DNA of 64,000 nucleotides, taken from Candidatus Levyibacteriota bacterium. GTDB lineage: Bacteria > Patescibacteriota > Microgenomatia > Levybacterales > UBA12049. The stretch spans positions 16,674-80,673 of the forward strand of contig DAHWUP010000001.1 of assembly GCA_027334565.1 (NCBI GenBank), in the 5' to 3' direction. How positions within the stretch are numbered: position 1 is the first letter of the stretch; every line of letters starts with the position of its first letter. This document shows positions 31,050-52,327 of the stretch, in pieces. Under the pieces are notes generated by a model, which was not told the origin of the DNA, did no database searches, and saw only the letters and a program-made list of their open reading frames with translations. The translations under genes and the position numbers were made by a program.

Positions 31050-31092
31050 AAATAGCTTTCTCCGGTAAGCCCGTCGGGCTTACCGCAAAATG

Positions 31093-32640: not shown

Positions 32641-34512
32641 ATGTTATATCATGAATTAATGCCTGAGAAATTACGTTTTGTCACAAAAGATTTGGTTATA
32701 TCCGTTGCTTCACTACTAATCGCGTCTTTGTGTTTTGTACTTGATTTGATTTATCCCGGCCGTACTTTTATAGCGTATATCGCCGCTTTTCTCTCTCTTT
32801 TTCCCTACTACCTGCCGATCGCAAGAGCTCTCCTTAGGTTCCAGCTGGACCTTTCCTTACCGCCAATAATCACTATTTATATATTGCTTTTTTTACAAAA
32901 AGGCGACGTCGCTATTGTCTTCATCCTTATCATCCTGACCGGGCATCTGTTCAAAACGATTATTCTCGATAGGGTAAAAGCTTCCATCGTCGGTATCTCC
33001 GATAAGTTGCCAAAAACCGCGGTCATCAAATCCTTGGGCAAAGAAACAGAAATTAATATCTCTTCGATTGGGGTCGGAGATGAATTGGTGGTCAAAAGCG
33101 GTGAAAGAGTGGCCACCGACGCAATTCTTTTATCGGATGAGGCACTCGTGGACGAATCCGTAGTAACAGGAGAATCAAAACCGGTCATAAAGAAAAAGGG
33201 CGACAAGCTGCTTGCAGGATCTATAAATTCCGGAAATTATTTTGAATGCACGGCAAGCGCAACGGCGGAAAATTCTACGCTTTTACAGATTCAAAAACTG
33301 GTCACCAAAGCCCAAAATGAAAAGTCCCCGCTTGCCGATATTGTCAGTAAATATGCCTGGATCACCACCGGCTTGGCCCTTACGGGCGTTTGGATAATTT
33401 TTTTAATAACCCATAACGGTCTTATCGCACTTTCCTTCTGGATAGCCGTTGTTCCGGTAATTTTTGCCATTATCGTACCGGTAGCCACGACAATAGGTAT
33501 CACGATACTCGCAAAACAGGGGATTCTGGTTAAAACCAGCACTTCGCTTGAAAATTTAACCCGCTCAAACACCTTCCTTTTTGATAAAACCGGCACCATA
33601 ACCCGGGGAAAACCCGAAGTTGAATATATTTTGGAAGTTGACGCCAAAAAGAATGAAATATTGCAGATCGCCGCGAGCATAGAAACTTATTCAAATCACC
33701 CGTTGGCGGAACCGATCATAGAAAAATCCAAACAGGAACGATTGAAGCTGTTGGAACTGACAAAAGTTAATACCCTGGTTGGAAAAGGCATGACCGCCTT
33801 ATTTGATAATAAGACGGTATTTTTAGGCAACTATTCTTTGCTTAATGAATTAATGATCAAACCTCCGGTCGGAATTCTTTCCATAATTAAGGACTGGGAG
33901 GGTAAAGGCGCGACTCCCGTTTATGTGGGAGAAAATGGCAAGGTCGAAGGTGTAATATTTCTACTTGATAAATTAAGGCCTGAGGCGAAACCGCTTTTTT
34001 CCGCTCTTAAATCGAGCGGTTATGAAACGATAATTGTTACCGGAGATAAAAAAGAGGTTGCCGAAACCGTAGTTCAACAACTCGATAATGCAAATTTCAT
34101 TGCCGATGTTGCGCCGGAAGGCAAAGTCGATGAAGTCGACAAAAAGGTCAATGAAGGGAAAAACATCGTCATGGTCGGCGACGGAATAAACGACGCACCG
34201 GCCCTTGCCAAAGCACAGGTGGGAATTGCCATGGGCGGAAAAGGCGTGGACCTGACCTTAAATGCCGCAGACATAGTGTTACTAAACAACAATATCGCTT
34301 CTATTCCGGGAATGATTACGATTTCCAAAAAAACTTTCAGAATAATCAAACAGGACGTATTTTTGGCTACCCTTATTCATTCAATTACCGCGATTTTGGT
34401 GATCACGGGTTTCATCACTATCGTAGAAACCACTTTTATACACGAATTTTCATCCGCCCTGGTACTCTTAAACACCGTCCGGTTGTTCCGGATTAAAATC
34501 AACAAAACTTAA
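32641..34512 (+). CDS. P-type cation-transporting ATPase, P1B-like topology with atypical TM4 motif
   Basis: TGES (VTGESKPV), DKTGTITRGKP, VTGDKKEVAE, MVGDGINDAPALAKAQVGIAMG. Four TM before the A-domain, no N-terminal metal-binding domain, and IVPVAT where the CPC motif is expected. Confidence 0.85.
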   Translation: MLYHELMPEKLRFVTKDLVISVASLLIASLCFVLDLIYPGRTFIAYIAAFLSLFPYYLPIARALLRFQLDLSLPPIITIYILLFLQKGDVAIVFILIILTGHLFKTIILDRVKASIVGISDKLPKTAVIKSLGKETEINISSIGVGDELVVKSGERVATDAILLSDEALVDESVVTGESKPVIKKKGDKLLAGSINSGNYFECTASATAENSTLLQIQKLVTKAQNEKSPLADIVSKYAWITTGLALTGVWIIFLITHNGLIALSFWIAVVPVIFAIIVPVATTIGITILAKQGILVKTSTSLENLTRSNTFLFDKTGTITRGKPEVEYILEVDAKKNEILQIAASIETYSNHPLAEPIIEKSKQERLKLLELTKVNTLVGKGMTALFDNKTVFLGNYSLLNELMIKPPVGILSIIKDWEGKGATPVYVGENGKVEGVIFLLDKLRPEAKPLFSALKSSGYETIIVTGDKKEVAETVVQQLDNANFIADVAPEGKVDEVDKKVNEGKNIVMVGDGINDAPALAKAQVGIAMGGKGVDLTLNAADIVLLNNNIASIPGMITISKKTFRIIKQDVFLATLIHSITAILVITGFITIVETTFIHEFSSALVLLNTVRLFRIKINKT

Positions 34513-34517
34513 ATAAA

Positions 34518-35693
34518 CTAAGGGGTTCTAAGCCTTTCTTCTTTGGCGAAAAAGATCTTGTAAAGATAAATGTTTGCCCCCGTCACCAGCGCGTACAAAT
34601 AGAACGGTACGGCGATAAAAGGCGTTGAGAAAAGCGAACCGGACAGCTCGGTGGCGATCGATGAACCCGTCAACCTGACCACCTGGTTGATACCCAGAGC
34701 TCTGCCCCGCTCATTTTCTTCAACCAGCGTGGTGATCGCAGTTTGCTGGATCGGAACGGCCAAAACTCTTAGAGCCGGAGTTATAAAATAGATAAAAAGA
34801 GCCAGGGGCAAGAATTTGACCAAAGGAAGAATAACCAGCATAATTATGCTAATCGCCCTTGAATAGGTGATGCTTTTGACAAAACCGTATTTTTTATCCG
34901 CATAGGGAGCGATCAAAAGAGAACTTGCCGCAATCACCCCGCTTATAAAAGTAAAAGTGGACATACTGTTTTCCGGTAATTTATAAACGATAATAAAAAA
35001 CGGGATCATAAACGGAGTGATCAGGCCTTGGGAAACACCGTTTAATAAACCTGTCAGAGTAAATTTTCCAATCACGAATTTGCTCTCGAGTTTTCTGAAT
35101 TTGCCTTTGATGTCGGGTGTGTACATAAAAAACAAGATGACGGTTCCAAGTAACGAGATCATTCCCGCAAGCAAAAATACCTCTTTAGCGGCGATAAATT
35201 TTACAAATACCGTTCCTATCGCCGCCGCAATCCCGTTCAAAAAAGCGAAAGCAGAATAATAAAACGTCCTTTTCTCTTTGGGTGTCAGATCAGCCAGAAC
35301 GGTATTTTGTATCGGTTGGACCGTGCCTCCGATCCCTCCTCCGGCTAAAGAACCGGTAGCCGAAAAACCGCCCAAAATAGCCGAAATGAATAAAATCGGG
35401 GTTGCATTTGAAAACCAAAGCAAAAAGCTCGACAACGGAAGAAGAAAAGTTGCCAAAATCAAGGTATTCCTCCTGCCCCATAGATCCGTTATCAAACCAA
35501 AGAATAATCCCAGTATGGCTGTTGCCAGAGTCGCCAGGGCAAAAATACTGCCTAAGAACAGAGGGCTTAAATGAAGGTCGTTTAAAACAAGATACGGAAA
35601 CGCGATGGCCAACATTCCCGCCGCTAGGCTCCTGGCGATCCTGGATATTAGAAGAATCCCAAGGGACGAACGAATTTTATCTGTCAATTCCAC
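34518..35693 (-). CDS. MFS transporter
   Basis: 391 aa, about 12 TM. GLITDLWGRRNTLILATF (MFS motif A-like). Confidence 0.7.
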   Translation of the reverse strand: MELTDKIRSSLGILLISRIARSLAAGMLAIAFPYLVLNDLHLSPLFLGSIFALATLATAILGLFFGLITDLWGRRNTLILATFLLPLSSFLLWFSNATPILFISAILGGFSATGSLAGGGIGGTVQPIQNTVLADLTPKEKRTFYYSAFAFLNGIAAAIGTVFVKFIAAKEVFLLAGMISLLGTVILFFMYTPDIKGKFRKLESKFVIGKFTLTGLLNGVSQGLITPFMIPFFIIVYKLPENSMSTFTFISGVIAASSLLIAPYADKKYGFVKSITYSRAISIIMLVILPLVKFLPLALFIYFITPALRVLAVPIQQTAITTLVEENERGRALGINQVVRLTGSSIATELSGSLFSTPFIAVPFYLYALVTGANIYLYKIFFAKEERLRTP

Positions 35694-35747
35694 AATATTT
35701 TCAATTATACATAAAATACGACAGGTAAAAATAGCTTAAATCCCGGT

Positions 35748-38120
35748 TTAATCTACGGGCTCGGGAGGCGATGCATGCAAAATGGGTCTTTGACTTAGTT
35801 TCGGTTCAAGTCTTGGACGCAAAGGCCTTATCAGCGCTATATCCAAAACCTCGTCCATGTGTGAGACAAAGACAAAATCCAGATCTTTTTTAACCTCCTT
35901 GGGTACGTCTTCCAAATCTTTCTTATTATCTTTGGGCAAAATGATGGTTTTTAGGCCGGCGCGATGGGCCGCGATCACTTTTTCCTTGACACCGCCGATC
36001 TCCAGGGCCCTTCCCCTTAAAGTCACTTCACCGGTCATACCGACCGTGCGCTTGACCGGAATCTTGGTTAATGCGGAAACGATTGCCGTAGTGATGGCCA
36101 GACCTGCAGAAGGTCCGTCTTTGGGAACCGCACCTTCCGGAACATGAACATGGACGTCGATTTTCTGATAGAATTTTTCCGGCAAGCCCAAATCCCTGGC
36201 TCTTGCCCGAATGTAAGAAAGCGCGGCCTGACAACTTTCTTTCATTACGTCTCCGAGCTGTCCGGTTAAAAGCAAATTACCTTTTCCGGGCATTAAAGCT
36301 ACTTCTATAAATAGTATGTCCCCGCCGGCCTCGGTCCAGGCCAACCCGGTCGACATCCCTGCTTCGTCCTTTTTCTCGATCAAGGTAGAGCTGACTTTTA
36401 TAGGGCCTAAAAACTTAGGCACATTTTTGTCGGAAACGATAATCTTTTTCTTGCTACCTTCTGCCACCTCCCTGGCAACCTTTCGCAAAATCGAGGCGAT
36501 TTGTCTTTCCAGAGTCCTGACCCCGGCTTCCCTTGTATAATGATCGATCACAAAACGGATCGCGGAATCGGTAATATCTACATGTTTGCCGGTTAAACCG
36601 TGCGCTTCCATTTGTTTCTTCAAAAGAAAGTCTTTGACGATCCTGAATTTTTCTTCCTGCGTGTAACCGGAGAACTGGATCACTTCAAGTCTGTCCCTTA
36701 AAGCCGGTGGTATGGTATCCAAAACATTGGCTGTCGTAACGAACATTACATCCGAGAGATCAAACGGAACCTCAAGGTAGTGATCGGAAAAAAGGTTATT
36801 TTGCTCAGGGTCCAACGCCTCCAAAAGCGCCGATGAAGGATCTCCCCTAAAATCCGCGCCGACCTTATCGATCTCGTCCAGCATGAACACCGGGTTTCTG
36901 GTTCCCGCGTCTTTAATCCCCTGAATGATCCTTCCCGGCATCGCTCCGACATATGTCCTTCTGTGTCCCCTTATCTCGGCTTCATCCCTGATCCCGCCCA
37001 AGGAAATCTTGACGAATTTTCTGCCTAAGGATCTTGCGATGGATTTTCCGATGGAGGTTTTGCCAACGCCCGGCGGTCCGACAAAACAAAGGATCGGTCC
37101 TTTCATTTTTCCCGACAGCTTATGAACCGCCAGATATTCGACTATCCTCTCCTTGACTTTCTCGAGCCCGTAGTGATCTTCGTTTAGAATCTTCTCCGCC
37201 TGTTTGATGTTGACCGTATTCTTGGTTTCAACGCCCCAAGGAAGGCTCAACAGCCAGTCAAGGTAATTTCGGATGTATCCGCCCTCGGGGTTGAACTGGT
37301 TCATCTGTGCCAGCTTTCGAATTTCCTTTTCCGCTTTTTCGGCGATATCGTCGGGCATTTTTGCTTTCTTGAGTTTTTCATACAACTCCTTGATCTCGCT
37401 GTCTTCGTCCGATTCGCCCAGTTCGCTTTGAATGGTCTTAAGTCTTTCCTTAAGCATGACTTCCCTTGCTCCTTTTTCAAACCTTTCCTGTGTTTTTGAG
37501 GCGATCTTTTTCTCAAGCTCCAAAACGCTGATTTCCTTGGACAAAAGGTCGATGACCTTTTCCAAACGCTTTTTGACGTCCAATTCTTCAAGAATGGTTT
37601 GCTTATCCGAGGGCCTAAGCTCTAAAACCGAGGCCACCAGATCTGCAAGTTGCGATGGCGTATTCTCACTCATCACGTTCATGAACACCAAAAAGTCCAC
37701 GAATTTACCCAAGTTTATCGCACGTTTGAATTCGTTTACCAGATGATTGGTCAGGGCTTTGATCTGGGGAGTATCGATAAAAATATCGTCGACTTCCTGA
37801 ACCCTTGCCATCATGAACGGTGAACCTTCAATGTATTCCAGTATGGCGATTCTGGACAATCCCTTGACCTGGGCGTTGATCTCGCCGTCACTTTTAATCA
37901 TGCGTTCGATGTGAGATAATGTACCCACATTATAGAGGTCCGAGGGCGACGGCTCGTTTAGTCTTGAATTCTTCTGTAAGACAAAACCGACGATTCGTTC
38001 CCCGGCAAAGGAGGATTCCAGAGCTGCCAGGCTTTTCGGTCTGCCGAAGGTCAACACCGAATCGGTATTGGGGAAAATGATTCCATCTCTGATTGGAATT
38101 ATAGAAACTATTTTTTCCAT
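35748..38120 (-). CDS. lon: ATP-dependent Lon protease
   Basis: Lon N-domain, Walker A GPPGVGKTS, DEIDK, catalytic PKDGPSAG, 790 aa. Confidence 0.9.
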   Translation of the reverse strand: MEKIVSIIPIRDGIIFPNTDSVLTFGRPKSLAALESSFAGERIVGFVLQKNSRLNEPSPSDLYNVGTLSHIERMIKSDGEINAQVKGLSRIAILEYIEGSPFMMARVQEVDDIFIDTPQIKALTNHLVNEFKRAINLGKFVDFLVFMNVMSENTPSQLADLVASVLELRPSDKQTILEELDVKKRLEKVIDLLSKEISVLELEKKIASKTQERFEKGAREVMLKERLKTIQSELGESDEDSEIKELYEKLKKAKMPDDIAEKAEKEIRKLAQMNQFNPEGGYIRNYLDWLLSLPWGVETKNTVNIKQAEKILNEDHYGLEKVKERIVEYLAVHKLSGKMKGPILCFVGPPGVGKTSIGKSIARSLGRKFVKISLGGIRDEAEIRGHRRTYVGAMPGRIIQGIKDAGTRNPVFMLDEIDKVGADFRGDPSSALLEALDPEQNNLFSDHYLEVPFDLSDVMFVTTANVLDTIPPALRDRLEVIQFSGYTQEEKFRIVKDFLLKKQMEAHGLTGKHVDITDSAIRFVIDHYTREAGVRTLERQIASILRKVAREVAEGSKKKIIVSDKNVPKFLGPIKVSSTLIEKKDEAGMSTGLAWTEAGGDILFIEVALMPGKGNLLLTGQLGDVMKESCQAALSYIRARARDLGLPEKFYQKIDVHVHVPEGAVPKDGPSAGLAITTAIVSALTKIPVKRTVGMTGEVTLRGRALEIGGVKEKVIAAHRAGLKTIILPKDNKKDLEDVPKEVKKDLDFVFVSHMDEVLDIALIRPLRPRLEPKLSQRPILHASPPEPVD

Positions 38121-38135
38121 ATGCTGTTTTTGGTA

Positions 38136-38162
38136 TTAGCACTCTATCATACTAATTGCTAG
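38136..38162. promoter_or_regulatory. CIRCE-like inverted repeat (TTAGCACTC-N9-AATTGCTAG) 16 nt upstream of the lon start
   Basis: The left half is identical to the CIRCE consensus TTAGCACTC. The right half matches GAGTGCTAA at 6 of 9 positions, and the spacer is 9 nt. Confidence 0.4.
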
Positions 38163-38165
38163 AAT

Positions 38166-38230
38166 GTCAAGAGGCTAGCGGCCTCGCCGACCCTGAATGT
38201 GTTTCATGGGTCAAGAGGCTAGCGGCCTCG
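38166..38230. repeat. two copies of a 21-nt direct repeat GTCAAGAGGCTAGCGGCCTCG, each containing a GAGGC/GCCTC hairpin, in the lon/mgtE-N divergent region
   Basis: Exact copies at 38166..38186 and 38210..38230, spaced 44 nt apart. Confidence 0.6.
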
Positions 38231-38281
38231 TGCAGACCAAATTATAACTTGATTCTTAAAATAGGATGAGAATTTTACCGA

Positions 38282-38311
38282 TTGACACAAGATTAGCCAC
38301 AAAACTACAAT
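38282..38311 (+). promoter_or_regulatory. sigma70-type promoter TTGACA-N18-TACAAT ending 9 nt before the ATG (leaderless-type)
   Basis: ttgaca at 38282..38287, tacaat at 38306..38311, ATG at 38321. Confidence 0.5.
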
Positions 38312-38320
38312 TAAAGTGCT

Positions 38321-39517
38321 ATGGTTTACTTAAGTCAATTACTGAATAAGAAGGTGTATTACGACCGCAAGGTCTACGGCGAGATGGTCGACTTTGCCGT
38401 TTTGGAAAGTTCTCCCAAACCGCTGGTTTCGCGGGTAGTGGTAAAAAAGGGTAACAAGAAAATTACCATTTCACCTTCGTTTCTGTCCATCAAGCGAAAC
38501 GGGGCGATTTTAAACTCAAGCCAGGCGCCTTTCTTCCCTTTCGACGAAAGGGATTTTTATTTAAATGAGGACCTATTGGACAAACAGGTTATCGACATCA
38601 ACGACAAAAGGCTGGTACGCGTCAATGACGTTCTTTTGGAAAGTAACGGAGAATTAAAGGTGGTGGGCCTGGATGTGGGTGCTTCGGGAATCTTCCGAAG
38701 GCTCGGGTTGGAACAGTTATTTAAAGTAAAACCGAAAATATTGCCATGGCAGATGATCGAAGCTTTCGACTATCAGACAGGTACGGTGAAGATAAGTCTT
38801 ACCGAGAATAGTGTCAAAAACATGCATCCCTCGGAAATAGCGGAAATCCTGGAGGATCTGGGAGCCAGGGAACGAAGAGGAATAGTCGAAAGTCTTGAAG
38901 CAAAACATGCGGCAAAGGCCATCGAGGAAGCAGACTCAAGGACCCAGGAAGCGATCCTCGAAGAACTTCCTTCAAGCGTTTTAAGAAATATCGTCGGCAA
39001 AATGCACGTTGCGGACATCGCGGGTCTTTTCTACAAAATGAATCCTTTGAGGATCCGGGAGATAATCAAAATGCTAGGAGAGGAACGCGCCAAAAAGGTC
39101 GAACGATTGATCGATTTCGGAACCGACAAGGCGGGCGGTGTGATGCGCACCGGGTTTGTCAGCTTCGACGGAAACACCACCGTCAAAGAAGCCTACAACA
39201 GTCTTTACAAAGACAGGCCGAAACCCGAGGCGGTCCTCGTCACCAACGGCAATGAAAAGCTGGTCGGAACGATTTATGTCAAGGATATTCTGGATATCGA
39301 CTCCCTTGCTTTACTTAAAGATATCGTTTCCGACAGAAAATTCGTATATCCTAACGTTGACCTTAACGAGGTTATCAAACTGTTTGCCCAGTATAACCTG
39401 CGTTCGTTACCGGTTGTGGACAAAGAAAAAAAGCCGATTGGAGTAATCACCACCGGGGTCGTCCTTTCCAAGGTACAGGAAAAGATAAGGGACAATGAAA
39501 ATACTTACATTAATTAG
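38321..39517 (+). CDS. orphan MgtE cytoplasmic module: PRC-barrel-like N-terminus, MgtE N-domain and CBS pair, with no transmembrane domain
   Basis: MgtE_N-like helical region (...IAEILEDLGARERRGIVESLEAKHAAKAIEE...) followed by two CBS motifs (VVDKEKKPIGVITTGVVLSKV). No hydrophobic helices. Overlaps the downstream Nramp gene by 23 nt. Confidence 0.7.
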   Translation: MVYLSQLLNKKVYYDRKVYGEMVDFAVLESSPKPLVSRVVVKKGNKKITISPSFLSIKRNGAILNSSQAPFFPFDERDFYLNEDLLDKQVIDINDKRLVRVNDVLLESNGELKVVGLDVGASGIFRRLGLEQLFKVKPKILPWQMIEAFDYQTGTVKISLTENSVKNMHPSEIAEILEDLGARERRGIVESLEAKHAAKAIEEADSRTQEAILEELPSSVLRNIVGKMHVADIAGLFYKMNPLRIREIIKMLGEERAKKVERLIDFGTDKAGGVMRTGFVSFDGNTTVKEAYNSLYKDRPKPEAVLVTNGNEKLVGTIYVKDILDIDSLALLKDIVSDRKFVYPNVDLNEVIKLFAQYNLRSLPVVDKEKKPIGVITTGVVLSKVQEKIRDNENTYIN

Positions 39518-40751
39518 AAAAAGGTTTTTATTTTTAATTCCGGTGCTGGCGATCGTCGGACCGGGTATCATCTCGGGCTCCGTTGATAACGACGCCGGCG
39601 GAATAACCACTTATTCGGTTGCCGGAGCAAATTTTGGGCATTCTCTTTTATGGATACTTTTTCTAACCACCTTTGCCCTGGCTATAACCCAGGAAATCGG
39701 CGCCAGAATGGGTCTTGTCACCGGAAAAGGACTCGCATCTTTAATCAGGGAAAAATTCGGTATCCGTTGGACAACCTTTGTGATGGCGTGTCTGTTGGTC
39801 GCAAACCTGGGGACCATCGCGGCCGAATTTGCGGGGATCGCGGCTTCAATGGAAATTTACAACATTTCAAAATTTATTTCTGTTCCCATAGCAATAATTT
39901 TGATCTTTGCGTTGGTGGCTAAAGGAAGTTTTAGGAAACTTGAGAAATTATTCCTCCTTTTATCTTTTTTCTATATCGCCTACATCGCCTCCGCTTTCAT
40001 CGTGCACCCCAACTGGACGATGGCGATTAAAAGCCTGGTCATACCGCAGATTAAACTTTCCGGCGTGTATATTTTAACCATGATGGCAGTGATCGGAACA
40101 ACAATTACTCCCTGGGGACAATTCTTTATTCAGGATTATGTCGTCGACAAAAAACTTACCAAAGAGGATATGAATGTCGAAAGAGGTGACGTTTTCTTCG
40201 GGAGCTTCTTAACCAATTTCATCTCCTTTTTTATAATCGTTGCCTGTGCGGCGACGATTTTTACCAAAGGGATTCAGATAACTACCGCCAAAGACGCCGC
40301 CCTGGCACTGCAACCGTTGGCCGGTAATTTTGCCGAGATACTATTTTCGTTCGGGCTTTTAAATGCATCGATTTTCGGTGCGGCCCTGGTTCCGGTCGCA
40401 ACCTCTTATGTCATTACCGAAGCGTTCGGCATAGAATCGGGGCTTAACTATTCAACCAGAGAAACTCCGCAATTTTACGGGCTTTTTATCCTGCTTTTGA
40501 TAATCGGCGGTTTAATGGTCATACTTCCGTTTTTTCCTTTACTGACGATTCTGGTCGTATCCCAGGCGATCAATGCGGTTTTATTGGTACCGATATTTGT
40601 GTTTTTGTACCTTCTCTCAAACGACAAGAAAATCATGGGCGAACACACCAATAATAAAGCCGTGAACGTCATCGTCCTTTTGACCATGGCAGGGTTATCG
40701 GTCGCTTCCCTTATCTATATGGTCTCGCTTTTCTTACCCAACCTGATATAA
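39495..40751 (+). CDS. Nramp-family transporter with non-canonical metal-site motifs (candidate NRMT-like)
   Basis: GPGIISGSVDNDAGGITTYSVAGANFGHSLLWIL aligns to the Nramp TM1 region, with D-A-G-G in place of DPGN. The TM6 region AVIGTTITPWGQF replaces A..MPH. 418 aa, about 11 TM. Confidence 0.8.
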   Translation: MKILTLIRKRFLFLIPVLAIVGPGIISGSVDNDAGGITTYSVAGANFGHSLLWILFLTTFALAITQEIGARMGLVTGKGLASLIREKFGIRWTTFVMACLLVANLGTIAAEFAGIAASMEIYNISKFISVPIAIILIFALVAKGSFRKLEKLFLLLSFFYIAYIASAFIVHPNWTMAIKSLVIPQIKLSGVYILTMMAVIGTTITPWGQFFIQDYVVDKKLTKEDMNVERGDVFFGSFLTNFISFFIIVACAATIFTKGIQITTAKDAALALQPLAGNFAEILFSFGLLNASIFGAALVPVATSYVITEAFGIESGLNYSTRETPQFYGLFILLLIIGGLMVILPFFPLLTILVVSQAINAVLLVPIFVFLYLLSNDKKIMGEHTNNKAVNVIVLLTMAGLSVASLIYMVSLFLPNLI

Positions 40752-40839
40752 ATTTCAAAGCTGTCTTTAAGCATATTTTAAAAACCGAATTACTATACTA
40801 TTATATATACCGTTTTCCTCCAAAATCCCCACCAATGCG

Positions 40840-40859
40840 ATTGTGATTATAATCACAAT
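40840..40859. promoter_or_regulatory. 20-bp perfect palindrome ATTGTGATTATAATCACAAT (with an embedded TATAAT) upstream of the giant adhesin gene
   Basis: Perfect dyad symmetry. A putative promoter, TTGCAT (40866..40871)-N17-TATATG, lies immediately downstream. Candidate operator. Confidence 0.6.
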
Positions 40860-40992
40860 ATTATATTGCATAAATAGCAATAAATATGTATATGAATTGA
40901 ATTACTACGGGTTATTGCATTTTAATATATCGAATGGTACTATTCGGACAATCTTAATTTATACCCGCCCGAATACAATTAGATTAAATTTA

Positions 40993-43900
40993 ATGAAAAA
41001 ATCTTTCCTAAGAAAGATCATTAATATTTTAGGCACTCTTGCGATTATTTCCCAATCGCTTACTCCTTATGTCGTTTTGCTCCCGCAAACATCTTATGCC
41101 CAGGAAACTTCTCCTACTCCGACACCTACCCCGTCGCAAACCACCAACACCAATACCACTACTAATAACAGTACGATCCCAACCGTAACTCCGACACCTG
41201 CGGTATCCCAGACCACCGTTACGCCGACGCCGACGCCAGTAGGCACAACAACCGAAACCCCCACTCCGACACCGACAGATACGACAACGCTAACACCGAC
41301 ACCTTCGATTGATAACACCGCGACTCCATCACCGACACCAACGGGGCTTTCTCCTCCCGATAACGCGACTATATCCGCTTCACCTACTCCAGCTGTTTCA
41401 AGTACACCTACCCAAAATGATTTCCTGTCCACGCCTAGCGGAATTTCAAACACTTCAACAAGTTCAGGTAATATATCACCAAACCTAAATGAATCTTTAA
41501 ATGCCATAATTGTACATAACGTCAAGGCAAATACATTAAATCTTACAAATGTTATATCCCAAGGTAGCGCAACCCTAACAACCAATAAAACCGATTACTC
41601 ACCTACTGATACTGTGGTTATAAATGGAACAGGATTTTTACCAAAAACTACATATACTTTAGAAATCGTATCCAGCGACCCCCCGCCGGTTGACTTTACG
41701 ACTGCAGTAACATCGGATAATAAAGGTGACATTGTTTACGCATATCAATTAGACGGCAATTACCGGCCAAACTATACGGTTTATGCAAAAGATTCGTCTG
41801 GGCAAATAGTTGCGACAACAACATTTACTGACTCGGGGGTAACGGTAAGCGTATTATCATGGAATACAATAGGTGTCGACAGCAATAAGCCAGTTTCAAC
41901 AGGACCCCATCAATTTGTTATTCAAGCAAGAGTAACAAATAATACAGGGTCAAGCATCACAAATGTTTCGGCAATTTTTGCTTTAGGATCTGGAACTTCG
42001 TACATTACCACCTTAGGCCCATTGACACAAAATATAGGAACGCTTGCCAATAATTCGTCTGCCGATGTGTTTTTTCAGGTTGTTATAACTCCACCTCCTT
42101 CTCCAGACAGCCCTAGTAATGCGGTTTACGGTACTAGTAGAAACTATACCGTTACAGCAGATTACACTGATAATTCAGGGGCGCAAGTAGCATCTTATTC
42201 TAACACCCTAACTATATTAGGACTCAATTCCCAAAACAGGAATAGTATTTTATCTACTACCGTAAGCCCTTCTACAATTACCGTTGGGGGTACATTCACC
42301 GTAACTGTAACTTCAAAAACAACCGGCGGTGGAAATTTTACCAACGTATCGGTACCAATGATGTTTGATCCTAATGTTGCCCAAATGATAGGTGATGTAA
42401 CCACTTATCAAATCCCAGCGGGAACTACATTAGATTCATTTTATGACCAAAACGTTGGAGGAGATATACAATCCGTATTTACATTTAAAGCTCTGGCAGC
42501 AGGAACATCAAATTTTTACTGGCTAATTTATGATCAATCTGGAGGAAGTTACCATTATAATTCTGATTATGGACAGGCTATTATAATTACTGTAAAACCT
42601 GGTTTCGGGATAACAAAAACTCCCGCATCACAAACAGTAAACCCGGGCGGGACAGCAAGTTTTTCATCCGTTATTTCCAACAGTGGTAACGGTACGGGAA
42701 CAATTTCATCGATTATAGATACATTGCCTGTTGGTTTTTCTTATAAGACTGGCAGCACTACAGGAATAACTACAAATGATCCAGCGATTAACGGTCAACA
42801 ATTAACATGGACTGGCCCATGGACAATAACCCCTGGGAATTCAATTACCATTAATTATCAGGCAATTGCTTCAACTACTCCCGGAACTTACACCAATTCA
42901 ATTATTGCAAAAGATAGCAATAATAATACAGTAGGACCGGCAACAGCAGATATCATCATCCCTGCTCCCACGGGCTCAATAACCATAGTAAAAGATGCAC
43001 AACCTAATAGCTCCCAATCTTTTTCCTATACCACAACCGGAAACGGACTTTCCAATTTTTCCTTGGTTGATGATGGTATAAACAACACTTATTACACTAC
43101 ATTTAGTAACTTAACTTCAGGAAATTATTCAATAACAGAATCCCCGACAACAGGTTGGTCGCTGACAAACCTTAGTTGTTTGGATAATAATAGTAGTCAG
43201 TCCGTTGGAAGTATAACAAGTAGCACAGCCTCTTTATCGCTTACAGCTGGACAAAACGTAACATGTACCTATACAAACACAAGGGATACGGGAAATATAG
43301 TCATAAATAAAACAGCAATAGGAGGAGATGATATATTTGGATATGCCATAACAGGTCCTTCGGGATACAACTCTTCTCAATCAATAAAAACAAGTTCCGG
43401 AATCGGAACTACCGGAAATATTCCTGTAAATACCGGAAGCGGTTATTCTGTAATAGAAGATACACCACTACCTGCTGGATGGGTGCCGACAAGCGTAGTT
43501 TGTAATAATGGAACCCAAAACGTTTCAAACACCAATTTCAGCGTTTCTAAAGGACAAACAGTAACCTGTACCTTCACTAATACTAAACTCGCAATAATTA
43601 CTGTTGAAAAAAACATGGTTGGAGGCACAGGAACCTTTAACTTTACGGGTAACTTTTCGGGAAGCATAGATACCAATGGGGGAACGATAACAGAATCCGT
43701 TCTGCCCGGAACATATGTTGCAACAGAATCAGCTACAACAGGTTGGGATTTAACCGATATAAGCTGTACCGGAGCCGGCAGTGGTTCGGGAAACTTGGGC
43801 AATTCAACAGCAACATTTAATGTAGCTGCAGGACAAAATGAAACTTGCACATTTACCAACACGAAATATGGTTCAATAACAGTTGTTAAAACCACCACAA

Positions 43901-46900
43901 ACGGCGATGGAACGTTTGACTACACGACAACAGGCGGACTAACTCCATCAACATTCAGCATAACCACAACGGGTGGAAACGGTTCTTTCCCTTATAACAG
44001 CGTATTGCCTGGAAATTACTCGATAACCGAGCTTACTGATGCAAGCTGGCAATTTAACTCATTAAGCTGTATTTCGGGCAACACAAACATTGCAACGTAT
44101 AGCGGGACCACTGCTTTCTTCCCTTTCGCAGCCGGTGAGAATGTTACCTGTACATATGGAAACACAGGTCTTGGGACTTTAATAATAGATAAAAATACAA
44201 CCGGCGGAGACGGCAGTTTTGGCTATACGGTAAACGGCGCAAGTTCTTCCGCACAAACTATTAATACAAGCGGCGGAGCCGGTACAACGGGCCCGCTAAC
44301 CGTAATCGCGGGAAATTACACAGTAACCGAAGCTAGCCAAAGCGGATGGATGCAAAATCCCGGATCATCTTGTTATGATCCATCGACAAGAACAACATAT
44401 TCACCATTTAATGTAACTGTAGGTATTGGAAAAATTGTCACGTGTACATTTAATAATACAAAACTTTCGACTATTAAAATTGTTAAAGATACAAATGGCG
44501 GAAACGGAACTTTTCCTTTCACAACAACAGGCAGTTTAACTCCTTCAACATTTAATATTGACACTATAAAAACTAACCTACAAGAATATGATAATGTAAC
44601 TCCCGGTTCGTATTCAATTTCCGAAACCTCACAAAGCGGATGGGATTTAACAGCACTTTCATGTACATCTTTAAATGGCAATTCAACGACATCAACCAAT
44701 CAATCAACGGGCACGGCTACGATAACCAACCTTGCAGCAGGAGACACAGTCATCTGTACATTTACGAATACTGCTAAGGGTTCATTAACAGTTAATAAGA
44801 TCACTATCCCAACGGGTATTACTACGACATTTAACATTAACGCAACCGGTTCTGGTACAATAACCGGCGGAGGGGCTGGAACAGTTTCAATAACAACCCC
44901 AAAGACTTACGAGGTAACTCCCGGAACATATTATGTTTCCGAAACACCGGCAACCGGATGGACGGAAGATACCAGCAATTGTCAGGGGGTAATCGTTGCC
45001 GCAGGGAAAAACTCAAGCTGTACCATTACAAATACAGAATTATCCAACTTGACTATCGTTAAAAATACAGTTGGGGGTGACGGGACTTTCGATTTTATAG
45101 CAACGGGGTCAGGGCTTAGTAATTTTAGCTTAACAACAGTGAGCGGGATAAAGTCTAAAACTTTCTCCAATATAAATTCGGGAACATATTCTGTAGCAGA
45201 AGACTCTCAAACAGGATGGATATCAGATACTTCAAACCCGCCAACTTGTACCAATGGCGATAATCCTTCATCTATAACTCTAAACCCGGGCGATAATGTG
45301 ACTTGCACTTTTACAAATGATAAATTACCTACGTTAACGGTTACAAAAACACTGTTACCAAATAGTGATTTAGGGAAATTTAACTTATTGATCGACAGTA
45401 ATATTGACGCAACAAATGTCGGTAATGGAGGGACAACCGGTACGCAAATAGTCAGCATAGGTTCGCATACAGTTTCTGAAACTGCCGGAACTTCAACCAA
45501 TCTTTCGGATTACAATGCCATAATCGGTGGAGATTGTGCTCCTGACGGCTCTATAAATTTGGCTGCAGGAGATATCAAAACTTGCACCATAACAAATACA
45601 AGATATGGCTCAATAACTATTGTCAAAAATACTATTGGGGCGGACGGGACTTTCGGCTTTATTGCAACCGGGTCCGGAGTATCAAACTTTGATATATCAA
45701 CAATATCCAACACAGGTTCTCAAACTTTCCCCAAACTATCACCCGGTACATTCTCATTCTCTGAAAATACACCTGCAAGTTGGGTGGAAGGATCAGTTTC
45801 TTGCAAAGATAATTCAACAGGAGGAACTGTTGGTACTGTTGTATCGGGACTTGCGTCATTCAGCCTAACTGCAGGACAAAACATAATCTGTACATTTAAT
45901 AATACCGCGCAGGGAACATTGATAATAGATAAAACAGCATTAGGCGGAGACTCAACTTTTGATTATACTGTTTCGGGTCCAACCAATATGTCACCCAGTA
46001 TTACTACCACAAGCGGTTCTGGAACAACTGGCGGAAAGGTAGTTATAGCAGGAACATACGACATTGCTGAATCTTCACAGGCGGGGTGGGTACAAAAAAA
46101 AGCAACTTGTGACAATGGAGATAATCCATCAAATGTTAACGTAGGCGTTGGAGATACAGTCACCTGCACATTTACTAATACTAAACTTGCCAATCTTACA
46201 ATAGTAAAAAACACAGTCGGCGGGGATGGGACTTTTGACTTTACCACAACCGGCTCGGGACTTAGTAATTTTGACTTAACAACTTCAAACGCAACAGCTT
46301 CTGCACCATTTGCCGATCTTAATCCTGGTTCTTATTCTGTTTCAGAAACTTCACAGCCGGGTTGGACATTAACCTCATCCAGCTGCACGAATGGTGATAA
46401 CCCGTCCAATATCACTTTAAACCCAGGAGATAATGTAATTTGCTATTTTGAAAATACAAAATTAGGAAGTATTACTGTTACCAAATATACCGACCCGGGT
46501 ACAGCCCAAACTTTTAACTTTACTCTAACAGGACTAGCAACCGGTTCGGCAACTACAAATATAGGAGATGGACAATCTTATACTTTTAATCAATTACCTC
46601 CTTCTGTTTCTTATTCCTTATTGGAAAATCCAACCACAGGATGGGATTTAACAGCGCTAAAATGTATTTCCACCAACAACAACTCAACTTTTTCTACGGA
46701 TATACCGACAAGTACAGTAACAATATCTAACCTTACACCAGGAGACAACGTAACCTGCTCATTCGGCAACACCGAAAGTGGGAATGTAATTATTACAAAA
46801 TATAACGACGTTTTGGGACAAGGAGTTTTCGATCAGACTGACCCGACGCTTTCGGGATGGACGATGAATCTGGCAAGCTATTCGGGAGGAATGTCTCAAA

Positions 46901-47733
46901 TAACCGATACAAACGGCATTGCAACATTTAATAATATTGCTCCGACTTCCTATACATTAACCGAAAACCAGCAAAACGGTTGGCAATTGACTGATATGTA
47001 TTGTTCTGGACAGGAAGAAGGGCCTATATTCGGCCCAACATCAACCAGCTACCCATTATTTGTCCAGCCCGGACAAACAATCTATTGCAGAGTCTTAAAC
47101 CACAACCTAATTCCTATCCTTACAATCACAAAAACAAACGATGCGGGCGATAATGTTCTAGGTCCGGGTAGCACGGTCAACTATACAATTACCATAACTG
47201 CAACGCAATCCGCGGCGCAAAATGTAACCGTTACCGACCTTCTTCCCGACGGGTTCCACTATAATTCCGGTTCATGGCAGGCTCTTTTGAACGGAAATCC
47301 TGTTTCCGTTCCTGAACCCACTTATCATTCACCAGGCACCTGGACTCTTGGCAACATGAACGTTGGGGATACTTACACCCTTAAATACTCGGTGACAATT
47401 GACGGCTCTGAAGCAACCGGAACATATTACGATAATGCCTGGGGACAGGGATATTCGGGTTCGGGCAACGTGGTATTAGCAAACGCAACAACCGACCCGG
47501 CACAAGGCTTTATCAATGACCCGACTTTCGTGGGAACCCAGGTTGTAATTGCTGCTTCTAATAATCAGGGCATCAACTATTCTAATCAAGTTACCCAAGA
47601 GGTTCTGGGAGCATCGACTTACCTTCCGGCTACCGGAGAAAATACACTTTGGGTTGTCCTGGCAACCTTACTCGGACTTTCAGGCTTGGGTATGCTATTA
47701 TACGGATTTAAATTAAGGAGAAATAATAAATAA
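40993..47733 (+). CDS. giant (2246-aa) sortase-anchored surface protein
   Basis: Start chosen at MKKSFLRKIINILGTLAIISQSLTPYVVLLPQTSYAQE (signal peptide); the upstream 50-codon extension in the ORF track is rejected. It has a signal peptide, a mucin-like Thr/Pro linker, Ig-like domains, two DUF11 domains and 14 CnaB/SdrD-B-like repeats. The C-terminus is LPATG (47623..47637), a hydrophobic helix and a KLRRNNK tail. Confidence 0.85.
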   Translation: MKKSFLRKIINILGTLAIISQSLTPYVVLLPQTSYAQETSPTPTPTPSQTTNTNTTTNNSTIPTVTPTPAVSQTTVTPTPTPVGTTTETPTPTPTDTTTLTPTPSIDNTATPSPTPTGLSPPDNATISASPTPAVSSTPTQNDFLSTPSGISNTSTSSGNISPNLNESLNAIIVHNVKANTLNLTNVISQGSATLTTNKTDYSPTDTVVINGTGFLPKTTYTLEIVSSDPPPVDFTTAVTSDNKGDIVYAYQLDGNYRPNYTVYAKDSSGQIVATTTFTDSGVTVSVLSWNTIGVDSNKPVSTGPHQFVIQARVTNNTGSSITNVSAIFALGSGTSYITTLGPLTQNIGTLANNSSADVFFQVVITPPPSPDSPSNAVYGTSRNYTVTADYTDNSGAQVASYSNTLTILGLNSQNRNSILSTTVSPSTITVGGTFTVTVTSKTTGGGNFTNVSVPMMFDPNVAQMIGDVTTYQIPAGTTLDSFYDQNVGGDIQSVFTFKALAAGTSNFYWLIYDQSGGSYHYNSDYGQAIIITVKPGFGITKTPASQTVNPGGTASFSSVISNSGNGTGTISSIIDTLPVGFSYKTGSTTGITTNDPAINGQQLTWTGPWTITPGNSITINYQAIASTTPGTYTNSIIAKDSNNNTVGPATADIIIPAPTGSITIVKDAQPNSSQSFSYTTTGNGLSNFSLVDDGINNTYYTTFSNLTSGNYSITESPTTGWSLTNLSCLDNNSSQSVGSITSSTASLSLTAGQNVTCTYTNTRDTGNIVINKTAIGGDDIFGYAITGPSGYNSSQSIKTSSGIGTTGNIPVNTGSGYSVIEDTPLPAGWVPTSVVCNNGTQNVSNTNFSVSKGQTVTCTFTNTKLAIITVEKNMVGGTGTFNFTGNFSGSIDTNGGTITESVLPGTYVATESATTGWDLTDISCTGAGSGSGNLGNSTATFNVAAGQNETCTFTNTKYGSITVVKTTTNGDGTFDYTTTGGLTPSTFSITTTGGNGSFPYNSVLPGNYSITELTDASWQFNSLSCISGNTNIATYSGTTAFFPFAAGENVTCTYGNTGLGTLIIDKNTTGGDGSFGYTVNGASSSAQTINTSGGAGTTGPLTVIAGNYTVTEASQSGWMQNPGSSCYDPSTRTTYSPFNVTVGIGKIVTCTFNNTKLSTIKIVKDTNGGNGTFPFTTTGSLTPSTFNIDTIKTNLQEYDNVTPGSYSISETSQSGWDLTALSCTSLNGNSTTSTNQSTGTATITNLAAGDTVICTFTNTAKGSLTVNKITIPTGITTTFNINATGSGTITGGGAGTVSITTPKTYEVTPGTYYVSETPATGWTEDTSNCQGVIVAAGKNSSCTITNTELSNLTIVKNTVGGDGTFDFIATGSGLSNFSLTTVSGIKSKTFSNINSGTYSVAEDSQTGWISDTSNPPTCTNGDNPSSITLNPGDNVTCTFTNDKLPTLTVTKTLLPNSDLGKFNLLIDSNIDATNVGNGGTTGTQIVSIGSHTVSETAGTSTNLSDYNAIIGGDCAPDGSINLAAGDIKTCTITNTRYGSITIVKNTIGADGTFGFIATGSGVSNFDISTISNTGSQTFPKLSPGTFSFSENTPASWVEGSVSCKDNSTGGTVGTVVSGLASFSLTAGQNIICTFNNTAQGTLIIDKTALGGDSTFDYTVSGPTNMSPSITTTSGSGTTGGKVVIAGTYDIAESSQAGWVQKKATCDNGDNPSNVNVGVGDTVTCTFTNTKLANLTIVKNTVGGDGTFDFTTTGSGLSNFDLTTSNATASAPFADLNPGSYSVSETSQPGWTLTSSSCTNGDNPSNITLNPGDNVICYFENTKLGSITVTKYTDPGTAQTFNFTLTGLATGSATTNIGDGQSYTFNQLPPSVSYSLLENPTTGWDLTALKCISTNNNSTFSTDIPTSTVTISNLTPGDNVTCSFGNTESGNVIITKYNDVLGQGVFDQTDPTLSGWTMNLASYSGGMSQITDTNGIATFNNIAPTSYTLTENQQNGWQLTDMYCSGQEEGPIFGPTSTSYPLFVQPGQTIYCRVLNHNLIPILTITKTNDAGDNVLGPGSTVNYTITITATQSAAQNVTVTDLLPDGFHYNSGSWQALLNGNPVSVPEPTYHSPGTWTLGNMNVGDTYTLKYSVTIDGSEATGTYYDNAWGQGYSGSGNVVLANATTDPAQGFINDPTFVGTQVVIAASNNQGINYSNQVTQEVLGASTYLPATGENTLWVVLATLLGLSGLGMLLYGFKLRRNNK
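41100..41440 (+). repeat. low-complexity mucin-like Thr/Pro-rich linker within the giant protein
   Basis: ETSPTPTPTPSQTTNTNTTTNNSTIPTVTPTPAVSQTTVTPTPTPVGTTTETPTPTPTDTTTLTPTPSIDNTATPSPTPTG... Confidence 0.8.
42973..47115 (+). repeat. array of 14 tandem ~98-aa CnaB/SdrD-B-like repeats with a conserved Lys/Glu/Asn triad
   Basis: Each repeat reads roughly xxTIVK.T.GGDGTFDF...G....SYSVSE....GW.L....C.....NP..ITL..GDNVTCTFTNTK. Repeats 8, 10 and 12 share nearly identical N-terminal halves (NLTIVKNTVGGDGTFDF..TGSGLSNF.LTT). Confidence 0.75.
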
Positions 47734-47738
47734 TTATT

Positions 47739-48689
47739 ATGAATAAACTGTTTAAATCATTGTTAATGTCTTTTGCGGCACTCTTCCTTTTTTCAGGGGT
47801 AAGTTTTGCTTCAACTTCGGTAAGGCTGCAGCAGCCGCAAACACCCACCAACCAGAATGCGTTCAACATCACTTTTGTTGCTTTGGATACCAACTCGTCC
47901 CAGGTTGTAACTGTTCAGTGCCAAAAACAGGGTCCGGGTGATTCAAATCCTGTGAATTTCGGCTCACCTATCACGCTTTCTGCCGGCGGCAATACCAACG
48001 TTTGCCAGGTCGGAAACGGACTATTGAATCAAAACGGCACTTACCAGTTTGACGTAATCGCCTACGGATCAAGCACTACAACCAGCAATACCGTCAACGT
48101 AGACTTTAATACCGATGGACCGGGCACACCCGGCAATTACAATAAAACCAAACCCGACAACTGCACTTACGAGATAACCTTTAGAACGGCCGACGACAAT
48201 GGGAAAACCGTCAAGGTGGTCTTGTACCGTTCGTCCAATCAGAACTTTAGCTTAGACAACGGAACCCAGGTAAACCAGGTTAGTATCGGTTCGAACACCG
48301 ACGGCTCGATGACCGACAACATCAGCCCAAACTGCAATACCAACTATTACTACGCGATCAGGGCTTTTGATAAATACGGAAACGGCTCGGGAGCAACCGG
48401 AGACAGTTCAACATCTACAACAATCATCAGTCCGACAGTTACGCAGCAGGAAGGAGCAATAGCCGGCGGTACCGCGGGAAATGTGCTTGGAGCCGAAGCC
48501 GGTGGACAAGGACAAGTTTTGGGTACGGAAAGTGCAAAACCGACCCAAACCCCTGCAAAAGTAACGGGACAAAATCCTGTTTCAAACGCAGTAAACTGGG
48601 TACTTACCCACAAAAAGGTCAGCTTGCTGGTTCTAATAATTTTGGCAGCGATTGCATACTTTCTTTACCGCAGATACTATAAAAAGTAA
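47739..48689 (+). CDS. secreted Ig/Fn3-like protein with a C-terminal membrane anchor
   Basis: Signal peptide MNKLFKSLLMSFAALFLFSGVSFAS, two beta-rich domains (...NYYYAIRAFDKYGNGSG), then a Gly/Ala-rich stretch and a C-terminal TM with an RRYYKK tail. No canonical LPXTG (nearest is PAKVTG). Confidence 0.6.
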   Translation: MNKLFKSLLMSFAALFLFSGVSFASTSVRLQQPQTPTNQNAFNITFVALDTNSSQVVTVQCQKQGPGDSNPVNFGSPITLSAGGNTNVCQVGNGLLNQNGTYQFDVIAYGSSTTTSNTVNVDFNTDGPGTPGNYNKTKPDNCTYEITFRTADDNGKTVKVVLYRSSNQNFSLDNGTQVNQVSIGSNTDGSMTDNISPNCNTNYYYAIRAFDKYGNGSGATGDSSTSTTIISPTVTQQEGAIAGGTAGNVLGAEAGGQGQVLGTESAKPTQTPAKVTGQNPVSNAVNWVLTHKKVSLLVLIILAAIAYFLYRRYYKK

Positions 48690-48698
48690 AATAGAATC

Positions 48699-49289
48699 GT
48701 GAAACTTCTCTCAAGAATTCTAATAACAATTGGGTTACTTTTGATTTTTTCTTCGGTTGTTCTATTTGTGTACATTTTCGCACCGGTGGCAAAAGTCGAA
48801 CTAAATTATGACCTTAACCGGCCCAGGGCAAACATCAATCAGATTACGCCTGTGGACAAAAATTTCGACATCGTCATTCCCAAGATAGGCGCCAACGCCA
48901 GGATAATTCCAAACGTAGACCCATTCAATTCAAACGTTTACGAACTGGCACTTTCCAAAGGCGTCGCGCAGGCCAAAGGCTCCGCCTTCCCCAACCAAAC
49001 CGGCAATATGTTCCTGTTTTCCCATTCCTCGGCCAACCTTTTGGAAGCTACGCGTTTCAATTCGATATTTTATCTACTATCAAAGTTAAATAAAGCAGAT
49101 GTAATTTATATTTATTACAATAATACAAGATACAAATACGTTGTGTCGGGAACCAAACTTGTTGACCCTTCCGACGTTTCTTATTTAAATCCGAAATCCA
49201 GCGTTAAACAGCTGACTTTGATGACTTGCTGGCCTGCAGGTACTAATTACAAAAGACTGATTGTAATTGCAAAATCTCTAAGTAAATAA
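48699..49289 (+). CDS. sortase (GTG start)
   Basis: N-terminal TM anchor, His region FLFSHSS, catalytic TLxTC motif QLTLMTCWP (Cys codon near 49228), conserved Arg in YKRLIVIA. 196 aa. Confidence 0.7.
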   Translation: MKLLSRILITIGLLLIFSSVVLFVYIFAPVAKVELNYDLNRPRANINQITPVDKNFDIVIPKIGANARIIPNVDPFNSNVYELALSKGVAQAKGSAFPNQTGNMFLFSHSSANLLEATRFNSIFYLLSKLNKADVIYIYYNNTRYKYVVSGTKLVDPSDVSYLNPKSSVKQLTLMTCWPAGTNYKRLIVIAKSLSK

Positions 49290-49313
49290 ATTCTGTCTAT
49301 AGCTTAAAGTAAA

Positions 49314-49329
49314 TATTCCTTCGGAATAC
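49314..49329 (+). other. UUCG-tetraloop hairpin TATTCC-TTCG-GGAATA immediately after the sortase stop; no T-tract
   Basis: 6-bp stem with a tetraloop. Possibly an RNA-stabilising element. Confidence 0.4.
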
Positions 49330-49649
49330 AGACACTACGCTTCGCTAGTCCACGGGAACCTATTATAAACGCCTAATTGTTATCGCAATTTCAAAATAAA
49401 CTGCTGAAAAAGTCTTCGATCCTCCCGCAACTACAGGAATAATCTCTTATCTTTCTTAAGCCTTATTTAAGAATTGCCTGCTATCATTTTTAAATTAATG
49501 AGAAAGTATGGATTGTTAAAACATTATTCCTCTTCGCCTATTCAGCCTCAATTTATAGTAATTACAATTACTGCGCTAACCCTAAATCCGCGATATATTT
49601 ACAGCCCAACGATAGATAGTTGAGCCAGATCTTAAATAAAGGAGGAAAT

Positions 49650-49736
49650 ATGCTGCAAAGCATAAGAGGCACCCGAAAAGGGTGTCTTTTTTTATCGAAA
49701 GAGACTGTCACTGGAGCATCAAAAAAACCCACCTGA
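49650..49736 (+). CDS. candidate 28-aa small ORF with a strong Shine-Dalgarno (AAAGGAGG)
   Basis: aaggagg at 49639..49645, then ATG at 49650. Encodes MLQSIRGTRKGCLFLSKETVTGASKKPT. An intrinsic terminator lies inside it. Confidence 0.3.
   Translation: MLQSIRGTRKGCLFLSKETVTGASKKPT
49668..49693 (+). terminator. rho-independent terminator (GGCACCC-GAAAA-GGGTGTC plus T7)
   Basis: 7-bp stem with one G-U pair, GAAAA loop, TTTTTTT tract. Confidence 0.6.
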
Positions 49737-49755
49737 AAACACAGAGCCAGGTGGG
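49721..49755 (-). terminator. minus-strand rho-independent terminator (CCCACCTG/CAGGTGGG 8-bp stem followed by T7 on the minus strand)
   Basis: Perfect 8-bp stem with a 12-nt loop. The A7 run on the plus strand is the T-tract on the minus strand. It faces the plus-strand terminator about 30 nt away. Confidence 0.5.
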
Positions 49756-49819
49756 CAAGAAGGACAGTACTACCCTTAACTGAAAAGAAGCTTAAGATAA
49801 ATATCGTCTTCTTGACATA

Positions 49820-52228: not shown

Positions 52229-52283
52229 AATTCCCCGCTTATTTTAACATATCATGATTTTAACCAAAACCCTCTCCATCAAA

Positions 52284-52327
52284 TTCTTAAACCCCATCCG
52301 TTGACGGCATAGGGTTTAAGAATTTTT
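52284..52327. other. 11-bp perfect inverted repeat TTCTTAAACCC/GGGTTTAAGAA (17-nt loop) plus TTTTT in the pyrD upstream region
   Basis: Seen directly in the sequence. Could be a terminator for the upstream minus-strand gene or a regulatory stem-loop. Confidence 0.4.

Follow-up and report, generated by a model that had tools for sequence, protein, structure and literature searches.

Genes at the locus and the start of the adhesin gene

The window, as we call the whole 64-kb stretch of DNA analysed here, derives from an uncultured, Levybacteria-like member of the Patescibacteria whose Nramp and sortase proteins are closest to those of Candidatus Levybacteria/Levyibacteriota MAGs, and a 19-kb Logan contig from SRR13170411 is 100% identical to positions 34210–48120. 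A lon gene on the minus strand is followed by a series of plus-strand genes. ORF analysis and Pfam identified an upstream operon (38321–40751) that consists of an MgtE_N/CBS/PRC gene (38321–39517) and an Nramp gene (39495–40751). A 241-bp spacer (40752–40992) separates it from the gene of a 2246-aa surface protein (40993–47733; ORF, Pfam and orthologue N-termini), hereafter the adhesin, which has a signal peptide, a Thr/Pro-rich linker, 11 stretches matching SpaA_4, matches to SpaA_2 and DUF11, and a C-terminal membrane anchor. The adhesin operon continues with a 316-aa protein not assigned to any family (47739–48689), which has a 319-aa counterpart at the same place in the related locus L169, and with a conserved Levybacteria sortase (48699–49289; 77% identity in L169).

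The adhesin can be read in frame from a GTG at 40843, inside the palindrome described below, which the public gene call (2296 aa) takes as its start. This public start is probably wrong. The real start is almost certainly the ATG at 40993, judged from the encoded protein, because this ATG opens a typical signal peptide, MKKSFLRKIINILGTLAIISQS, that aligns with the N-termini of P0001 and of the L169 adhesin. The L169 adhesin starts at L169:1918 with the same signal peptide. Its gene call starts at 2407 and is accompanied by a spurious 136-aa antisense ORF (region 1899–2407); in both loci the conserved signal peptides (MKKSFLRKIINIL and MRKTFLRKIINIV) mark the true ATG, at 40993 in the window and at 1918 in L169.

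Some further features of the surroundings are recorded here in their own right. The 398-aa PRC-barrel/MgtE_N/CBS protein is cytoplasmic and has no match to the MgtE membrane domain; its gene overlaps Nramp by 23 nt and the pair is kept in all close relatives. The protein may serve the Nramp transporter as a regulatory partner. On the minus strand, positions 1168–24261 hold a cluster of ∼23 kb made up almost wholly of glycosylation and envelope genes, among them several PMT_2 and YfhO-like membrane glycosyltransferases, several GT2 and one GT1 glycosyltransferase, a polysaccharide flippase and a PBP-like protein. A replication origin at 40.8 kb was considered and rejected, as the cumulative GC skew falls almost steadily with no turn there.

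A 20-bp perfect palindrome between the Nramp and adhesin genes

The preliminary description of this DNA had reported a 20-bp perfect palindrome with an embedded TATAAT hexamer upstream of the adhesin gene, and both are present in the intergenic spacer. The sequence ATTGTGATTATAATCACAAT at 40840–40859 is a perfect 10+10 palindrome centred at 40849.5 (sequence and palindrome scan, no strand assigned). It begins 89 nt past the Nramp stop (40751), ends 133 nt before the adhesin ATG, and is almost certainly non-coding, given the adhesin start at 40993. The −10-like TATAAT occupies 40848–40853 on the plus strand (sequence and promoter scan), with its mirror copy on the minus strand at 40846–40851. 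Within the 64-kb window ATTGTGATTATAATCACAAT occurs once, even when three mismatches are tolerated, and it is the longest perfect palindrome, the runners-up being 7+7.

The palindrome had also been called rare by chance, which holds only in part. Perfect palindromes of at least 10+10 appeared in 34 of 300 whole windows simulated with a first-order Markov model (11%). When the model was trained on the 5.6 kb of intergenic DNA of the window (37.7% G+C; 8.7% of the window), they appeared in 1.6% of the simulated 5.6-kb sets (P ∼ 0.016). By extrapolation, a few tenths of such a palindrome would be expected by chance in the intergenic DNA of a ∼1-Mb genome. A second perfect 20-bp palindrome, TGCATAAAAATTTTTATGCA, was seen in the related 20-kb locus L169 (18598–18617), where a 144-aa gene and an ABC transporter gene diverge, the palindrome overlapping the start codon of the former.

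Candidate promoters around the palindrome

Comparison with L169 points to a candidate promoter, P2, on the plus strand at 40915–40943, with a −35 hexamer TTGCAT (40915–40920), a 17-nt spacer and a −10 hexamer TACTAT (40938–40943). The hexamers and their flanks, GGTTATTGCAT and GGTACTATTCGG, are identical in L169, and the 17-nt spacer has diverged; the conserved blocks run over GGTTATTGCAT and over GGTACTATTCGG-CAATCT-AATT. Retained hexamers around a diverged spacer are, at the level of sequence comparison, the signature of a functional promoter. Its predicted transcription start lies at ∼40950, which places the dyad centre (40849.5) at about −100.5.

The preliminary description had instead placed the adhesin promoter at TTGCAT-N17-TATATG, about 100 nt before the adhesin start. 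This sequence does exist on the plus strand at 40866–40894, ending 99 nt before the ATG. However, its −10 is weak, lacking the near-invariant final T, and it is not conserved, as it sits in a segment that has no counterpart in L169; the conserved promoter is P2, 60–100 bp further downstream. Relative to the TATATG promoter the palindrome would be centred at −51.5. For the palindrome's own TATAAT, the best −35 partner is TCCCCA at a spacing of 16 nt, without a TTG. The best promoter candidates in the adhesin spacer match 7–9 of 12 consensus positions, TCCCCA-N16-TATAAT tying for best with 9 of 12, and several other genes of the window, PRTase, MgtE_N, MarR and Lon among them, reach 10–12 of 12. 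Such weak predicted promoters are compatible with dependence of the adhesin gene on a regulator, without showing it.

Transcription signals elsewhere in the window were noted separately. At many genes a near-consensus −10 hexamer ends only 6–10 nt before the start codon (regions 29234–29290, 38270–38320, 59800–59858, 57826–57870, 35694–35747 and 61227–61271). TTGACA-N17-TATAAT ends 9 nt before the PRTase ATG and TTGACA-N18-TACAAT ends 9 nt before MgtE_N; the VIT1, response regulator and MFS genes and a 220-aa gene have similarly short distances, and in L169 a TGgTATAAT ends 7 nt before an ATG. Many genes of the window thus look leaderless by sequence. Two G+C-rich hairpins between same-strand genes, at 31050–31098 and 52281–52325 (−23.4 and −25.7 kcal/mol; z about −5.3 and −5.7), are probably the organism's actual terminators.

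Resemblance to known operators

The preliminary description had judged the palindrome to be of the size of an operator for a dimeric helix-turn-helix regulator, and size and symmetry do fit such a protein. Its core, TGTGA-TTATAA-TCACA (40842–40857, no strand assigned), matches the CRP consensus core TGTGA-N6-TCACA (PMC2504297) with 0 mismatches and is the only exact match in the window. The T and A adjoining the half-sites (TGTGAT...ATCACA) also occur in ICAP, AAATGTGATCTAGATCACATTT, the strongest artificial CRP site (PMC2504297). Compared with the consensus AAATGTGA-N6-TCACATTT, the palindrome thus shares the inverted repeat; its two-fold symmetry is perfect, and a weak promoter lies downstream of it. 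It differs in its outer flanks, which leave the match at 12 of the 16 specified positions of the 22-bp consensus (counted on the sequence), and in its position, as neither −51.5 nor −100.5 from the candidate promoters is canonical for class I or class II; moreover, the window has no Crp/Fnr gene and no regulon signal. CRP activates from centres near −41.5, or at −61.5, −71.5, −82.5 or −92.5, and represses by overlapping promoters. Measured from the predicted starts, the palindrome has no canonical activation geometry, and it overlaps its own TATAAT.

The palindrome is also close to the Rex operator. The 18-mer TTGTGATTATAATCACAA (40841–40858) agrees at 16 of 18 positions with the 18-bp consensus TTGTGAAW4TTCACAA (PMC2883068). 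Length, the arms TTGTGA...TCACAA and the W4 centre are shared, whereas a symmetric pair of mismatches stands at positions 7 and 12 (T/A for A/T). Further differences from Rex are that the downstream gene encodes a sortase-anchored surface protein and not a fermentation or respiration enzyme, that the palindrome lies outside the conserved promoter, ending 55 bp before the conserved −35, and that the window has no rex gene. Rex operators usually overlap the promoter; ndh and nuoA are classical Rex targets, and an adhesin is not a typical one. The symmetric lac operator, AATTGTGAGC-GCTCACAATT, separates its TGTGA and TCACA arms by 4 bp. The palindrome has the outer arms ATTGTGA...TCACAAT and the 20-bp length in common with it, but the arms are 6 bp apart and hence in another helical register, and the window has no LacI-family gene. 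By our own estimate, a random palindrome would match any one such motif with a chance of about 1 in 1000.

Occurrence of the 18-mer in other organisms

A scan of public contigs found the exact 18-mer TTGTGATTATAATCACAA in 71 metagenome stretches; the palindrome locus or a relative of it was absent from these and from five viral matches. In 39 of the 71, no ORF of at least 100 aa covers the 18-mer, a figure to be read with the caveat that AT-rich words are expected to be enriched in non-coding DNA regardless. At 12 metagenome loci the 18-mer stands 11–40 nt upstream of an ORF start. Among the matches whose neighbouring ORFs were scanned, the genes directly downstream include those for NDH-2 (ndh), nuoA, cytochrome c, class I fumarase, Usp and DoxX, and two loci carry additional TGTGA-N6-TCACA-like sequences beside the 18-mer. 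Genes such as these (NDH-2, nuoA and others) are typical targets of redox or energy regulators. Judged from these contexts, the 18-mer elsewhere behaves as if it were at once a −10 and the operator for a redox or energy regulator. By analogy, it would be a good binding site in principle; the foreign contexts say nothing direct about the Levybacteria-like genome.

Together, the exact CRP core, the 16/18 match to Rex and the presence of the same 18-mer just upstream of genes in unrelated organisms make the palindrome, by sequence of textbook quality for the TGTGA-N6-TCACA class, a credible candidate site for a dimeric regulator.

One contig, L113, was considered as a related locus on account of a shared flanking 12-mer and rejected, as the match is at chance level and the contig, whose LysE shares 47% identity with that of a euryarchaeon, looks archaeal. 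It carries, within ∼250 bp of a ∼1-kb non-coding region (1380–1590), four TGTGA-N6-TCACA-like sites, TTTGTGATTATAATCACAAT, TGTGATTTAAGTCAT, TGTGATTATATTCAC and TGTGACGAGAATCACA, an arrangement that resembles a dense operator array.

Conservation in related genomes

A sortase homologue (77% identity) led us to the syntenic locus, with MgtE_N/CBS, Nramp, adhesin, 319-aa and sortase genes, which was seen in L169 and L171 (Logan) and in L170 (NCBI GCA_021785915.1). The adhesin of L169 is related as a mosaic: long stretches are far more similar than its overall identity of 41%. Alignment of the spacers revealed no counterpart of the palindrome arms in the syntenic orthologous promoters of L169, L170 and L171; the core promoter is kept in L169. 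The plus-strand segment without a counterpart in L169 covers 40837–40899 at its widest and measures ∼37–63 bp, its limits depending on how the AT-rich flanks are aligned; it holds both the palindrome and TTGCAT-N17-TATATG. The palindrome is likewise absent from the more distant orthologous promoters L082 and L083, whose adhesin N-terminal domains are 61% and 54% identical, respectively; L082 has a near-consensus TTGACA-N17-TATACT ∼48 nt before the ATG. Absence from orthologous promoters, which the preliminary description had named as evidence against a control site, is therefore what we found in L169, L170, L171, L082 and L083.

We also searched 80 GTDB loci collected through Nramp, including the regions downstream of that gene, and TGTGAT-N4-ATCACA occurred in none of them. 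The closest Nramp relatives are in L001 and L002 (72–73% identity) and in L155 and L160 (77–79%); all four keep Lon/MgtE_N/Nramp where visible and have other genes downstream of Nramp.

Two side observations concern the variability of this region. Downstream of Nramp lie the SpaA-type adhesin and sortase genes in the window (40752–50707) and in L169, a 1424-aa Fn3_assoc/CHB_HEX_C protein in L155 (11270–16807) and an rve transposase in L160 (11270–12354), and the DNA past Lon/MgtE_N/Nramp has the look of a hot spot for genes of large surface proteins. L170, a strain or assembly variant, has lost 30 bp between short ATAAT/AATTAAT repeats (∼380–420, against 1826–1870 of L169), and with them the spacer and −10 hexamer of the conserved promoter for the adhesin; this may be a naturally occurring off-variant of the adhesin or an artefact of assembly.

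Searches for a regulon and a regulator

Within the 64-kb window the putative operator does not recur. With at most two mismatches allowed, 15 sequences fit TGTGA-N6-TCACA where 19.2 are expected, and two fit TTGTGAT-N4-ATCACAA at 11 of 14 positions where 3.6 are expected; the latter motif at 10 or more of 14 positions and the half-site TTGTGATTA are not commoner in the window than in shuffled sequence. The recurrence of the half-site that the preliminary description had looked to as the mark of a regulon thus did not emerge in these 64 kb, where there is neither a related site nor an enrichment.

A Pfam scan of the ORFs of at least 150 aa and of selected small ORFs in the window revealed no Crp/Fnr-type or Rex-type protein. 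The regulators present are a MarR protein, a 72-aa XRE protein and an OmpR-type response regulator with its kinase. A literature search found no reports of Crp/Fnr or Rex regulators in Patescibacteria/CPR. MarR was rejected as the binder of the palindrome, since its promoter carries an unrelated ATTAGT-N16-ATTAGT repeat that is shared with L160. In the MarR-efflux promoter, TTGACA-N17-TATACT, this repeat surrounds the −10, and window positions 28437–28536 are similar to L160 5963–6045; the region adjoins a conserved tRNA gene. To judge by its sequence and placement, the repeat is probably the MarR operator. L160 further holds a 14-bp perfect palindrome, GTGATTTAAATCAC, at 6147–6160 within TTATGTGATTTAAATCACTTTT, which is one mismatch from TGTGA-N6-TCACA; lying ∼25 nt past a tRNA gene and upstream of a MarR-efflux operon, it could represent a terminator or a related operator, or have arisen by chance.

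DISCUSSION

We tentatively favour the reading, held at somewhat below even confidence, that the palindrome is a lineage-specific operator for a homodimer of the CRP/FNR or Rex type. The case for its use in this organism is circumstantial, and of the checks proposed in the preliminary description most gave a negative result. From its sequence, its match to the CRP consensus and its position, we infer that a homodimeric helix-turn-helix or winged-helix regulator may bind it with TTGTGAT as the half-site, each monomer reading one TGTGA arm; the family of that regulator and the sign of its effect are proposed on the same grounds. The bound dimer could occlude TATAAT together with the adjacent TTGCAT-N17-TATATG and so turn off an extra upstream promoter, or it could modulate the conserved TTGCAT-N17-TACTAT promoter from near −100. 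We slightly favour repression by occlusion over action on the conserved promoter.

Nearly as probable is that the palindrome is a neutral product of chance in AT-rich promoter DNA that evolves fast, without a function of its own. A common −10 context, ATTATAAT, is already an 8-bp palindrome, so that six more complementary pairs suffice to produce the full dyad, and with the simulated frequencies given above (11% of windows, 1.6% of intergenic sets) a scan of many windows will meet some cases. The palindrome is missing from every orthologous promoter compared, the window offers neither a regulon signal nor a cognate regulator, L169 also carries a perfect 20-bp palindrome at a gene start, and the promoter region is unstable, as the 30-bp deletion in the L170 strain variant illustrates. 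Coincidental emergence of CRP consensus sequences where the regulator is poorly conserved has been proposed (PMC3590769). What chance explains less readily is that all 10 core positions match a well-known operator consensus (the 1-in-1000 event estimated above), that the palindrome falls in the 8.7% of the window that is intergenic, and that the next longest palindrome reaches just 7+7. Less probable, and on balance unlikely, is a plain promoter, in which TATAAT would be the −10 of an extra, unregulated adhesin promoter, or the sequence an AT-rich UP-like element, and the symmetry incidental. TCCCCA-N16-TATAAT does tie for the best sigma-70-like match in the spacer, and in other organisms the 18-mer stands 26–40 nt before start codons, as expected if TATAAT is a −10; yet the −35 partner lacks the TTG typical of good promoters in this genome, a −10 has no need of seven additional symmetric base pairs to either side, and the conserved promoter is at another place (40915–40943).

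It is very unlikely that the palindrome acts as RNA, either as an intrinsic terminator of the MgtE_N-Nramp operon or as a hairpin in a long adhesin leader. In favour of such a role are its position 89 nt past the Nramp stop, the AUUAUAUU that comes next, a folding energy of −9.5 kcal/mol for the 41-nt segment (z = −2.2) and the related palindrome GTGATTTAAATCAC, followed by TTTT, just past a tRNA gene in L160. However, the stem is AU-rich and weak (−9.5 kcal/mol, where terminator-like hairpins elsewhere in the window reach −23 to −26 kcal/mol), a terminator scan found no site within 40500–41200, the whole spacer is not more structured than shuffled sequences (z = −0.14), and orthologues with the same Nramp 3′ end do not have the palindrome. 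Rfam gave no match at E values up to 1 in 40650–41100 and, over the window at the gathering score, one tRNA and nothing else. We therefore rejected a terminator, a riboswitch or another RNA on the weak fold, the terminator scan and Rfam; because the RNA hairpin is weak and matches no Rfam family, a role at the DNA level fits better. Equally improbable is that the palindrome is the footprint or end of a small inserted or mobile segment. The ∼37–63 extra base pairs relative to L169 and the varied cargo downstream of Nramp (the Fn3_assoc protein in L155, the rve transposase in L160) would agree with an insertion, but there is no second copy, there are no flanking direct or inverted repeats and no recombinase lies nearby, findings on which a mobile-element end and an invertible switch were discarded; apart from the palindrome, the extra segment is similar to no other sequence compared.

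As it stands, the palindrome is one unconserved site with a familiar consensus, an element of a known kind, and the main practical value of the analysis is corrective, namely that the adhesin gene call starts inside the palindrome and that the position of the promoter is revised. A real lineage-specific operator would offer a concrete starting point, of which there are few, for studying gene regulation in Patescibacteria (CPR) and would suggest that the very large adhesin is conditionally expressed. A more far-reaching version, to which we give little weight, is that a global metabolic sensor of the CRP or Rex type was recently wired to the giant adhesin through a newly acquired, operator-bearing segment of ∼60 bp. 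Were this true, cAMP or NADH/NAD+ status would switch the attachment of the cell to a host or surface, and the site would be a first case in the Candidate Phyla Radiation of a cis-regulatory element that ties attachment to physiology.
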